From assembly GCF_041248615.1 (NCBI RefSeq), contig NZ_CP158426.1: a stretch of 64,000 bases of DNA; one strand, written 5' to 3'. The DNA comes from Escherichia coli (GTDB lineage Bacteria > Pseudomonadota > Gammaproteobacteria > Enterobacterales > Enterobacteriaceae). Below, piece after piece: positions 26,353 through 26,991 of this stretch. The notes under the pieces were generated by a model, which saw only the letters and a program-made list of their open reading frames with translations, was not told the origin of the DNA and ran no database searches. A program made the translations under genes and the position numbers. The first letter of the stretch is position 1. Each line of letters starts with the position of its first letter.

Positions 26353-26790
26353 TTAAACCATCACCAGCGATAACTCTTTGCCAAGCGCCTTTGCCGCGAG
26401 CTGGACGGCGTCGATTTTTGTCGCATGGTGCAAATTAAATAGGCGAGTAATCTCCTGTTTAGGTTTGCCAATTCGTCTGGCTAACTCTTGCTGAGTGATT
26501 TCTGACTGTAAAAAAGCATTTAACAGCAATACCTTAGAGGCGACGCTCAAAGGCACTTCAATAAAGTGATCGTGACTATTTAATGGCGAAGGTAACGGGA
26601 TAAGCTCGTTATCTTCAAAATAAAAATCAAATGCGGTCAGTAAAGCATCTTTTGCCGCTTCCATCGCTTCAGCAACTGTTTCGCCCTGGGTCAACGCTTC
26701 AGGGATATCCACAAAAGAAACCATATAACCGCCTTCCGGCGCGGGTGTAAGAGTGACGGGATAACGCATAATTTCGACTGTCTCTCGCAT
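26353..26790 (-). CDS. hicB: HicB antitoxin (alternative start at 26769 gives 138 aa)
   Basis: ORF track; MRYPVTLTPAPEGGYMVSFVDIPEALTQGET...; immediately downstream of hicA. Confidence 0.85.
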   Translation of the reverse strand: MRETVEIMRYPVTLTPAPEGGYMVSFVDIPEALTQGETVAEAMEAAKDALLTAFDFYFEDNELIPLPSPLNSHDHFIEVPLSVASKVLLLNAFLQSEITQQELARRIGKPKQEITRLFNLHHATKIDAVQLAAKALGKELSLVMV

Positions 26791-26814
26791 GTCATTAACC
26801 TTTTTAATTGGCGA

Positions 26815-26991
26815 TTAACTCAAACCGAGTTGCTTCAGGATTGCTTTACGCAATGGTTCTTTTATCTCATCACTGGGGTGACGCGGCATGACACTGCGTC
26901 GCCCTTGAAACCTGAGTTTCAAATGGTTGCTGCCATTCGCCACATCGACGCCCTGAGATTCGAGCCAACGTCTGAACTCGCTTTGTTTCAC
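26815..26991 (-). CDS. hicA: HicA mRNA interferase toxin, 58 aa, GTG start
   Basis: Read from DNA: VKQSEFRRWLESQGVDVANGSNHLKLRFQGRRSVMPRHPSDEIKEPLRKAILKQLGLS; below the ORF-track size cutoff. Confidence 0.8.
   Translation of the reverse strand: MKQSEFRRWLESQGVDVANGSNHLKLRFQGRRSVMPRHPSDEIKEPLRKAILKQLGLS

Follow-up and report, generated by a model that had tools for sequence, protein, structure and literature searches.

The window, by which we mean the whole 64,000-nt stretch of Escherichia coli DNA that was analysed, carries on its minus strand a hicA gene followed by a hicB gene. The two are adjacent and co-oriented with 45 nt between them, which is the layout of a type II toxin-antitoxin operon, and they lie between yncJ and ydcR. 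The genes and their component parts are located as follows.

27213 to 27443, plus strand: yncJ, with a DUF2554 domain (173 bits); rlhA lies beyond.
26815 to 26991, minus strand: hicA coding sequence, 58 aa plus stop, with a GTG start at 26991 to 26989; the HicA mRNA-interferase toxin.
26923 to 26925, minus strand: His23 codon (CAT) of hicA, placed from the window sequence and the alignment with PDB 6HPB.
26907 to 26905, minus strand: Q29 codon of hicA, differing from K-12.
26874 to 26872, minus strand: S40 codon of hicA, differing from K-12.
26770 to 26814, minus strand: hicA-hicB spacer, 45 nt, with 0/45 differences from K-12; it contains an upstream ATG at 26790 to 26788.
26353 to 26769, minus strand: hicB coding sequence, 138 aa plus stop, with an ATG start; the HicB antitoxin and repressor.
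26353 to 26790, minus strand: longer hicB reading frame, 145 aa from the upstream ATG at 26790 to 26788.
About 26569 to 26763, minus strand: N-terminal partial RNase H-like domain of HicB (PF15919, HicB_lk_antitox).
About 26368 to 26508, minus strand: C-terminal HTH_3 domain of HicB (PF01381).
24868 to 26274, minus strand: ydcR, with GntR and aminotransferase domains.

The locus is almost certainly orthologous to the chromosomal hicAB operon of E. coli K-12, a type II toxin-antitoxin system, and it is intact. The HicA product, MKQSEFRRWLESQGVDVANGSNHLKLRFQGRRSVMPRHPSDEIKEPLRKAILKQLGLS, matches Pfam PF07927 (HicA_toxin) at 34.5 bits, where the cutoff is 27; its residues 5-57 correspond to positions 3-58 of the 58-position profile, and its single domain and length of 58 aa lie within the family range of 50-100 aa. 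It is identical to chain A of PDB 6HPB, a structure of the K-12 complex, at 56 of 58 residues (E = 9e-34). In HicB, both domains score above their gathering thresholds, with 32.8 bits for PF15919 over residues 10-74 and 31.4 bits for PF01381 over residues 95-141 of the 145-aa reading. The 138-aa HicB is identical to chain B of 6HPB and 6HPC at 138/138 residues (E = 1e-86 for the 6HPB match), and the 145-aa reading matches the longer construct in PDB 6U0I at 145/145. Since the Pfam scores exceed their thresholds and the proteins match those of PDB 6HPB, the hicA reading frame is not a chance one. Over the two coding sequences 15 of 594 nt differ from K-12, an identity of 97.5%. Domain content, structural identity and the K-12 annotation agree, bearing out the first-pass annotation of the pair as hicAB, and we found no evidence against that identification.

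The surroundings are equally well preserved. The order rlhA-yncJ-hicA-hicB-ydcR-ydcS is common to the window, K-12 and strain TUM14771, the last of which shows 100% identity with the window across a 1.2-kb query; the K-12 MG1655 record reads sutR-rlhA-yncJ-hicA-hicB-ydcR-ydcS. The position between yncJ and ydcR given in the first-pass annotation is thus that of the MG1655 gene order. The same 1.2-kb query matched 5,416 of the 5,426 complete genomes of E. coli, with hicA, hicB, ydcR and yncJ annotated in 25/25 of the matches listed; in a second count 5,349 of the 5,426 matched the locus DNA, annotated as hicA/hicB between yncJ and ydcR. Other searches were less informative. Neither HicA nor HicB was matched by the NCBIfam release 20 models at E <= 0.01, so that their naming by PGAP presumably follows from another type of rule. 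PADLOC applied to HicB gave only marginal helix-turn-helix matches (E > 0.001), and the Rfam search returned only two sub-threshold matches, neither of them relevant. The naRNA4 match, with 24.9 bits where the gathering score is 59.5 (E = 0.077), falls just downstream of yncJ at 27444 to 27483, which may be a REP-type element.

The reading frame of hicA is well defined. At 58 aa it falls below the default cutoff of 60 aa for listing open reading frames, as had been noted, and the minus-strand reading of 26100 to 27300 places its GTG at 26989 to 26991, where the first-pass annotation had put it; the translation quoted there agrees with the computed one. An in-frame TGA lies upstream at 27018 to 27016, and none of the intervening codons (TAT ACT CAG CGG CAG GGA GGT GAT) is ATG, GTG or TTG. 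Since residue 5 is already the first of the Pfam domain, no in-frame start other than the GTG is possible. Alignment with K-12 hicAB, proposed earlier as a check, yielded no conflicting reference start: the curated K-12 gene (NC_000913.3, b4532, 1509286 to 1509462) is 177 nt long with the identical GTG and frame, and the PGAP start of WP_000813797.1 equals the window GTG. The N-termini of five plasmid HicAB homologues of the helix-turn-helix type align at the position of the GTG (M/V-K-x-S-E-F), and the closest of them, from Arsenophonus, likewise begins hicA with GTG, preceded by GGAGG-N4. His23, found in the sequence GSNHLKLRF, is important for the RNase activity of HicA (PMC11594946); a histidine is aligned with it in 5/5 homologues.

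The functional unit is larger than the coding coordinates, comprising in addition a promoter and operator region of about 200 nt that reaches to about 27195. Its elements are as follows.

26992 to 27000, minus strand: hicA Shine-Dalgarno (SD) sequence GGAGGTGAT, corresponding to GGAGGCGAT in K-12.
26988 to 26993, minus strand: AUGUGA context, with an out-of-frame ATG (26993 to 26991) and then TGA (26990 to 26988), overlapping the GTG.
27010 to 27018, minus strand: TGaTATACT, an extended -10-like element and candidate for P2, assigned from the sequence.
27024 to 27041, no strand assigned: candidate hicO, a perfect palindrome (GTAAACA-ctaa-TGTTTAC) that precedes the GTG by 33 nt.
27042 to 27195, minus strand: upstream regulatory region, with no difference from K-12; presumed to hold P1 and the CRP-S site, which are taken from the literature.

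This region is very close to that of K-12. Over the 204 nt that precede the GTG only one nucleotide differs, that substituted at 26995 within the SD sequence, and 4 of 221 nt differ over the full yncJ-hicA intergenic region, the other three adjoining yncJ. Where the region is identical to K-12, whatever works there should also be present here. A custom script searching for perfect palindromes with arms of at least 7 nt found only that at 27024 to 27041 between yncJ and the start of hicA, and it is identical in K-12. Its core, AACA-N4-TGTT, recurs upstream of hicA on a plasmid of Pseudomonas amygdali. In K-12 hicO is placed at P2, near the start of hicA (PMC11594946, PMC10865869, PMC6957337), and the palindrome is most likely the HicB operator hicO. 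We propose that the TGaTATACT element is the -10 sequence of P2. A transcript starting ~7 nt after it would have its 5′ end at about 27003, only a few bases ahead of the SD sequence (27000 to 26996), and a start just before the hicA SD would explain a P2 transcript from which HicA is not expressed. The element was not flagged by a strict consensus promoter scan; the scan for consensus promoters and terminators gave three promoter-like matches against 2.1 expected, none of them upstream of hicA, and no terminator.

A CRP-S site was sought with the core TGCGA-N6-TCGCA. There was none with three or fewer mismatches in 27215 to 26992, the best upstream candidate having four, and a scan of the whole window allowing two or fewer gave 37 matches against 41 expected, none upstream of hicA. 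The near-palindrome TTGCA-aattag-CGCAA at 27131 to 27146, within the presumed P1 region and identical in K-12, was considered as a CRP-S site and rejected, as the register of its half-sites is wrong for CRP or CRP-S; we know of no factor that binds it. P1, P2 and hicO have reportedly been mapped by Turnbull and Gerdes in 2017 (Mol Microbiol 104:781) and by Manav et al. in 2019. The hicAB locus is not mentioned by Cameron and Redfield (2006).

How such a module would work is inferred from the K-12 literature, from which the RNase activity, its neutralization and the logic of the two promoters are carried over. K-12 HicA is a small RNase with the dsRBD fold whose cleavage of mRNAs and tmRNA does not depend on translation, and experiments on the K-12 protein have demonstrated both its RNase activity and growth arrest when it is expressed (PMC11594946). 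By analogy the free 58-aa toxin of the window, with its dsRBD-like fold, would cleave these RNAs with no need of their translation and arrest growth. The N-terminal domain of K-12 HicB packs on the beta-sheet of HicA and neutralizes it in an A2B2 complex, while its helix-turn-helix domains dimerize and bind the operator (PMC11594946, PMC10865869). The partial RNase H-like domain here is expected to bind and neutralize HicA as A2B2 in the same manner, and the C-terminal helix-turn-helix to dimerize and repress the proximal promoter P2 at the operator, most likely the palindrome at 27041 to 27024. Starvation induces transcription of hicAB, and this induction depends on Lon (PMC11594946, PMC10865869). 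With its CRP-S site, the distal promoter P1 serves both genes; Sxy activates it and HicB does not repress it. Excess HicA de-represses P2, from whose transcript HicB but not HicA is made (PMC11594946, PMC10865869, PMC6957337). In the window, P1 would then transcribe hicA and hicB in dependence on CRP and Sxy. Surplus HicA would free the operator of HicB, and the short-leader transcript of P2 would yield HicB only, restoring the balance.

The coding sequences differ from those of K-12 in distinct ways. In hicB the 7 changes in 417 nt are all synonymous, while 8 of 177 nt differ in hicA, giving the substitutions H29Q and C40S. An elevated divergence of hicA was considered and rejected; against 8 of 177 nt the flanking genes yncJ, ydcR and rlhA differ from K-12 by 2.2-3.0% (with 2, 5 and 6 amino-acid changes, respectively), and the numbers are too small. 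A 66-nt probe spanning both substitutions has exact matches in 239 genomes. Serine is the commonest residue at column 40 in the five homologues (3/5, with cysteine in 0/5), and position 29 is variable. The change from CAT to CAA at codon 29 also lengthens from 6 to 7 nt the arms of a second perfect palindrome, TTGAAAC-tcag-GTTTCAA, at 26905 to 26922 within hicA codons 24-29, which may be due to chance.

The single upstream substitution is placed in the ribosome binding site of the toxin. With T at 26995 in place of the C of K-12, the SD sequence GGAGGC becomes GGAGGUGAU, abutting the GUG, and forms a 9-nt perfect complement of the 3′ end of 16S rRNA (AUCACCUCC). The predicted energy of the duplex is -18.5 kcal/mol in the window, compared with -14.6 kcal/mol in K-12. 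The allele is rare, with an exact 64-nt match in 11 of 4,253 hicA-bearing genomes. On paper the ribosome binding site of the toxin (-18.5 kcal/mol) is stronger than that of either hicB start (about -4 kcal/mol), offset by the GTG and the short spacing.

The locus takes three forms in the 5,426 complete genomes of E. coli surveyed. About 35% of these have lost the toxin gene, through a deletion of either 445 or 22 nt, a figure that reflects sampling bias, as do all counts from the survey. The start region of hicA is present in 4,253 of the 5,426. Both deletions were counted with junction-specific probes of 50 and 53 nt, each half of which is shorter than 28 nt. The 445-nt deletion, found in 1,093 of 5,426 genomes including IHE3034, corresponds to 27036 to 26592 of the window and has a 1-nt microhomology. 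Lost with it are the right palindrome arm, the candidate -10 element of P2, hicA in its entirety and codons 1-59 of hicB, and PGAP labels the remnant as a hicB pseudogene. The 22-nt deletion is found by its junction probe in 809 of the 4,253 genomes that bear the hicA start, including O104:H4. In strain 18SZHZ655Rt it lies at the equivalent of 26853 to 26874, so that hicA is frameshifted and hicB left intact. In hicA alleles of the K-12 type the deleted segment lies between two direct repeats, TGCG. In the window the AGT codon of Ser40 destroys the first of these repeats, and the allele therefore lacks the substrate for 22-nt slippage. Loss of the antitoxin alone was not seen among the matches listed. 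Destruction of the toxin, by itself or along with the 5′ portion of hicB, is the pattern expected for toxin-first decay of a chromosomal module.

Could the locus in the window be a decaying remnant of this kind, its Q29/S40 toxin attenuated or inactive, rather than a working module? The frequency with which hicA has been inactivated by the two deletions in E. coli (1,093 and 809 genomes), and the departure of the allele from the characterized K-12 HicA at two residues, would be consistent with this. We nevertheless consider it very improbable, given that the reading frame is intact and retains His23, that Ser40 is the residue most often found in the homologues and position 29 a variable one, that exactly this allele is present in 239 genomes, and that 8 differences in 177 nt are not clearly above the 2-3% of the flanking genes. 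An intact orthologue of the K-12 operon accounts for the locus far better. Within it, the point at which each protein is begun might still depart from our assignment. For hicB the first-pass annotation had given a distance from hicA of 24 to 45 nt depending on the start, and both values are correct when counted from the hicA stop codon at 26815 to 26817, the ATG at 26790 giving 24 nt and that at 26769 giving 45 nt. The predicted SD pairing is weak at both (-4.5 kcal/mol for 26790 and -4.2 kcal/mol for 26769), so that sequence alone leaves the start unsettled. Translation of a 145-aa HicB from 26790 across a 24-nt spacer would be compatible with the frame, which is open from that codon, with an AAGG ~9 nt upstream of it, the predicted pairing there being no stronger than at the rival start, and with the expression and crystallization of this form in 6U0I, the sole instance in which it is seen. 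The weight of comparison lies elsewhere. Curated K-12 NP_415955.2 (b1438), PGAP WP_001270286.1, and 6HPB and 6HPC all have the 138-aa protein, the first two starting at the equivalent of 26769. In a tblastn search that matched 113 plasmid records, most of the 30 alignments listed start at residue 7-10 of the 145-aa reading. Five homologues start 1-4 residues from M8 with stop codons just upstream, and from this the HicB family lacks an extension of the 145-aa type. The start of hicB is thus most likely the ATG at 26769, and we regard the longer protein as rather unlikely.

For hicA the question concerns the AUGUGA context, which has already been catalogued for K-12. There hicA is one of 18 'atGTG' genes, listed in Table 2 with SD GGAGG and an aligned spacing of 12, a 'predicted ambiguity: no' and a protein abundance of 0.021 ppm (Kohl et al. 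2022, PMC9841429). It could be supposed that an appreciable share of ribosomes start at the out-of-frame AUG, stop immediately at the UGA and then either leave or initiate a second time at the GUG, throttling the synthesis of HicA. The context is present in the window, termination-reinitiation has been shown at such sites, with narQ as a native example, and the very low abundance of HicA would fit (Kohl et al. 2022, PMC9841429). Yet the gene is classed as unambiguous in K-12, and with aligned spacings of 12 for the GUG and 10 for the AUG it is the AUG that lies farther from the optimum of ~14 (PMC9841429); moreover, the extended SD duplex of the window would include the A and U of the AUG, which should disfavour it further. 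We therefore think throttling of this kind unlikely, and direct initiation at the GUG is the reading that we retain. Another gene of the neighbourhood, rlhA, is also an 'atGTG' gene, with a poor SD sequence, UAAG, at a spacing of 7 (Kohl et al. 2022, PMC9841429). Its longest reading frame from a GTG encodes 667 aa (27535 to 29538), and K-12 and PGAP annotate 653 aa (27535 to 29496).

What does the locus add to our understanding of these modules? The hicAB system is already known, and its identification here is correct but ordinary. Its value lies mainly in annotation, in that a real toxin gene of 58 aa, initiated at GTG, falls below a 60-aa cutoff for open reading frames, and start codons are assigned to both genes. 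Mildly new are the lineage-private SNP that extends the SD sequence and the quantified pattern of toxin loss, and nothing else. Should the SNP measurably shift the ratio of HicA to HicB translation, the balance of toxin and antitoxin would be retuned by natural variation. That the lineage of about 11 genomes, with its private SNP and the minority Q29/S40 allele, has in fact retuned the balance at translation initiation is a speculation to which we assign a low probability.

The closest relative of the module is K-12 hicAB itself (b4532/b1438; 6HPB, 6HPC and 6U0I), with which it shares the locus, the toxin-first order, the GTG, the 45-nt spacer and the HicB protein. It differs in H29Q and C40S, in 8 nt of hicA and 7 nt of hicB, and in the C to T change at 26995. 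More distant are the plasmid-borne HicAB modules of the helix-turn-helix type, in which a HicA of 58-60 aa is followed by a HicB of 138-140 aa with the identical two domains. Their HicB proteins are 43% (Arsenophonus nasoniae pArsFIN11), 50% (Variovorax sp. WDL1) and 31% (Pseudomonas amygdali) identical to that of the window, and the Arsenophonus hicA shares its GGAGG-N4-GTG arrangement. A palindrome is found upstream of hicA in 3/3 of these modules; the palindromes differ in sequence, although P. amygdali and the window have the AACA-N4-TGTT core in common. In contrast to the chromosomal operon the plasmid modules lie on mobile elements, have spacers of 9-65 nt and mostly use ATG for hicA. 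In PLSDB the hicA-family gene at 481 to 663 of P. amygdali plasmid p2_tig3 is tagged as a predicted resistance gene, 'APH(3')-IIc' (100% identity by rgi), which looks like an annotation artefact.

A broader likeness is to mqsRA, higBA and toxTA of H. influenzae. In these too the toxin comes first, a distal promoter serves both genes and a proximal promoter repressed by the antitoxin serves the antitoxin only, toxTA being in addition under CRP-S and Sxy control (PMC11594946, PMC6957337). The proteins themselves are unrelated, with toxins of the RelE/HigB-like type in place of the dsRBD-fold HicA.
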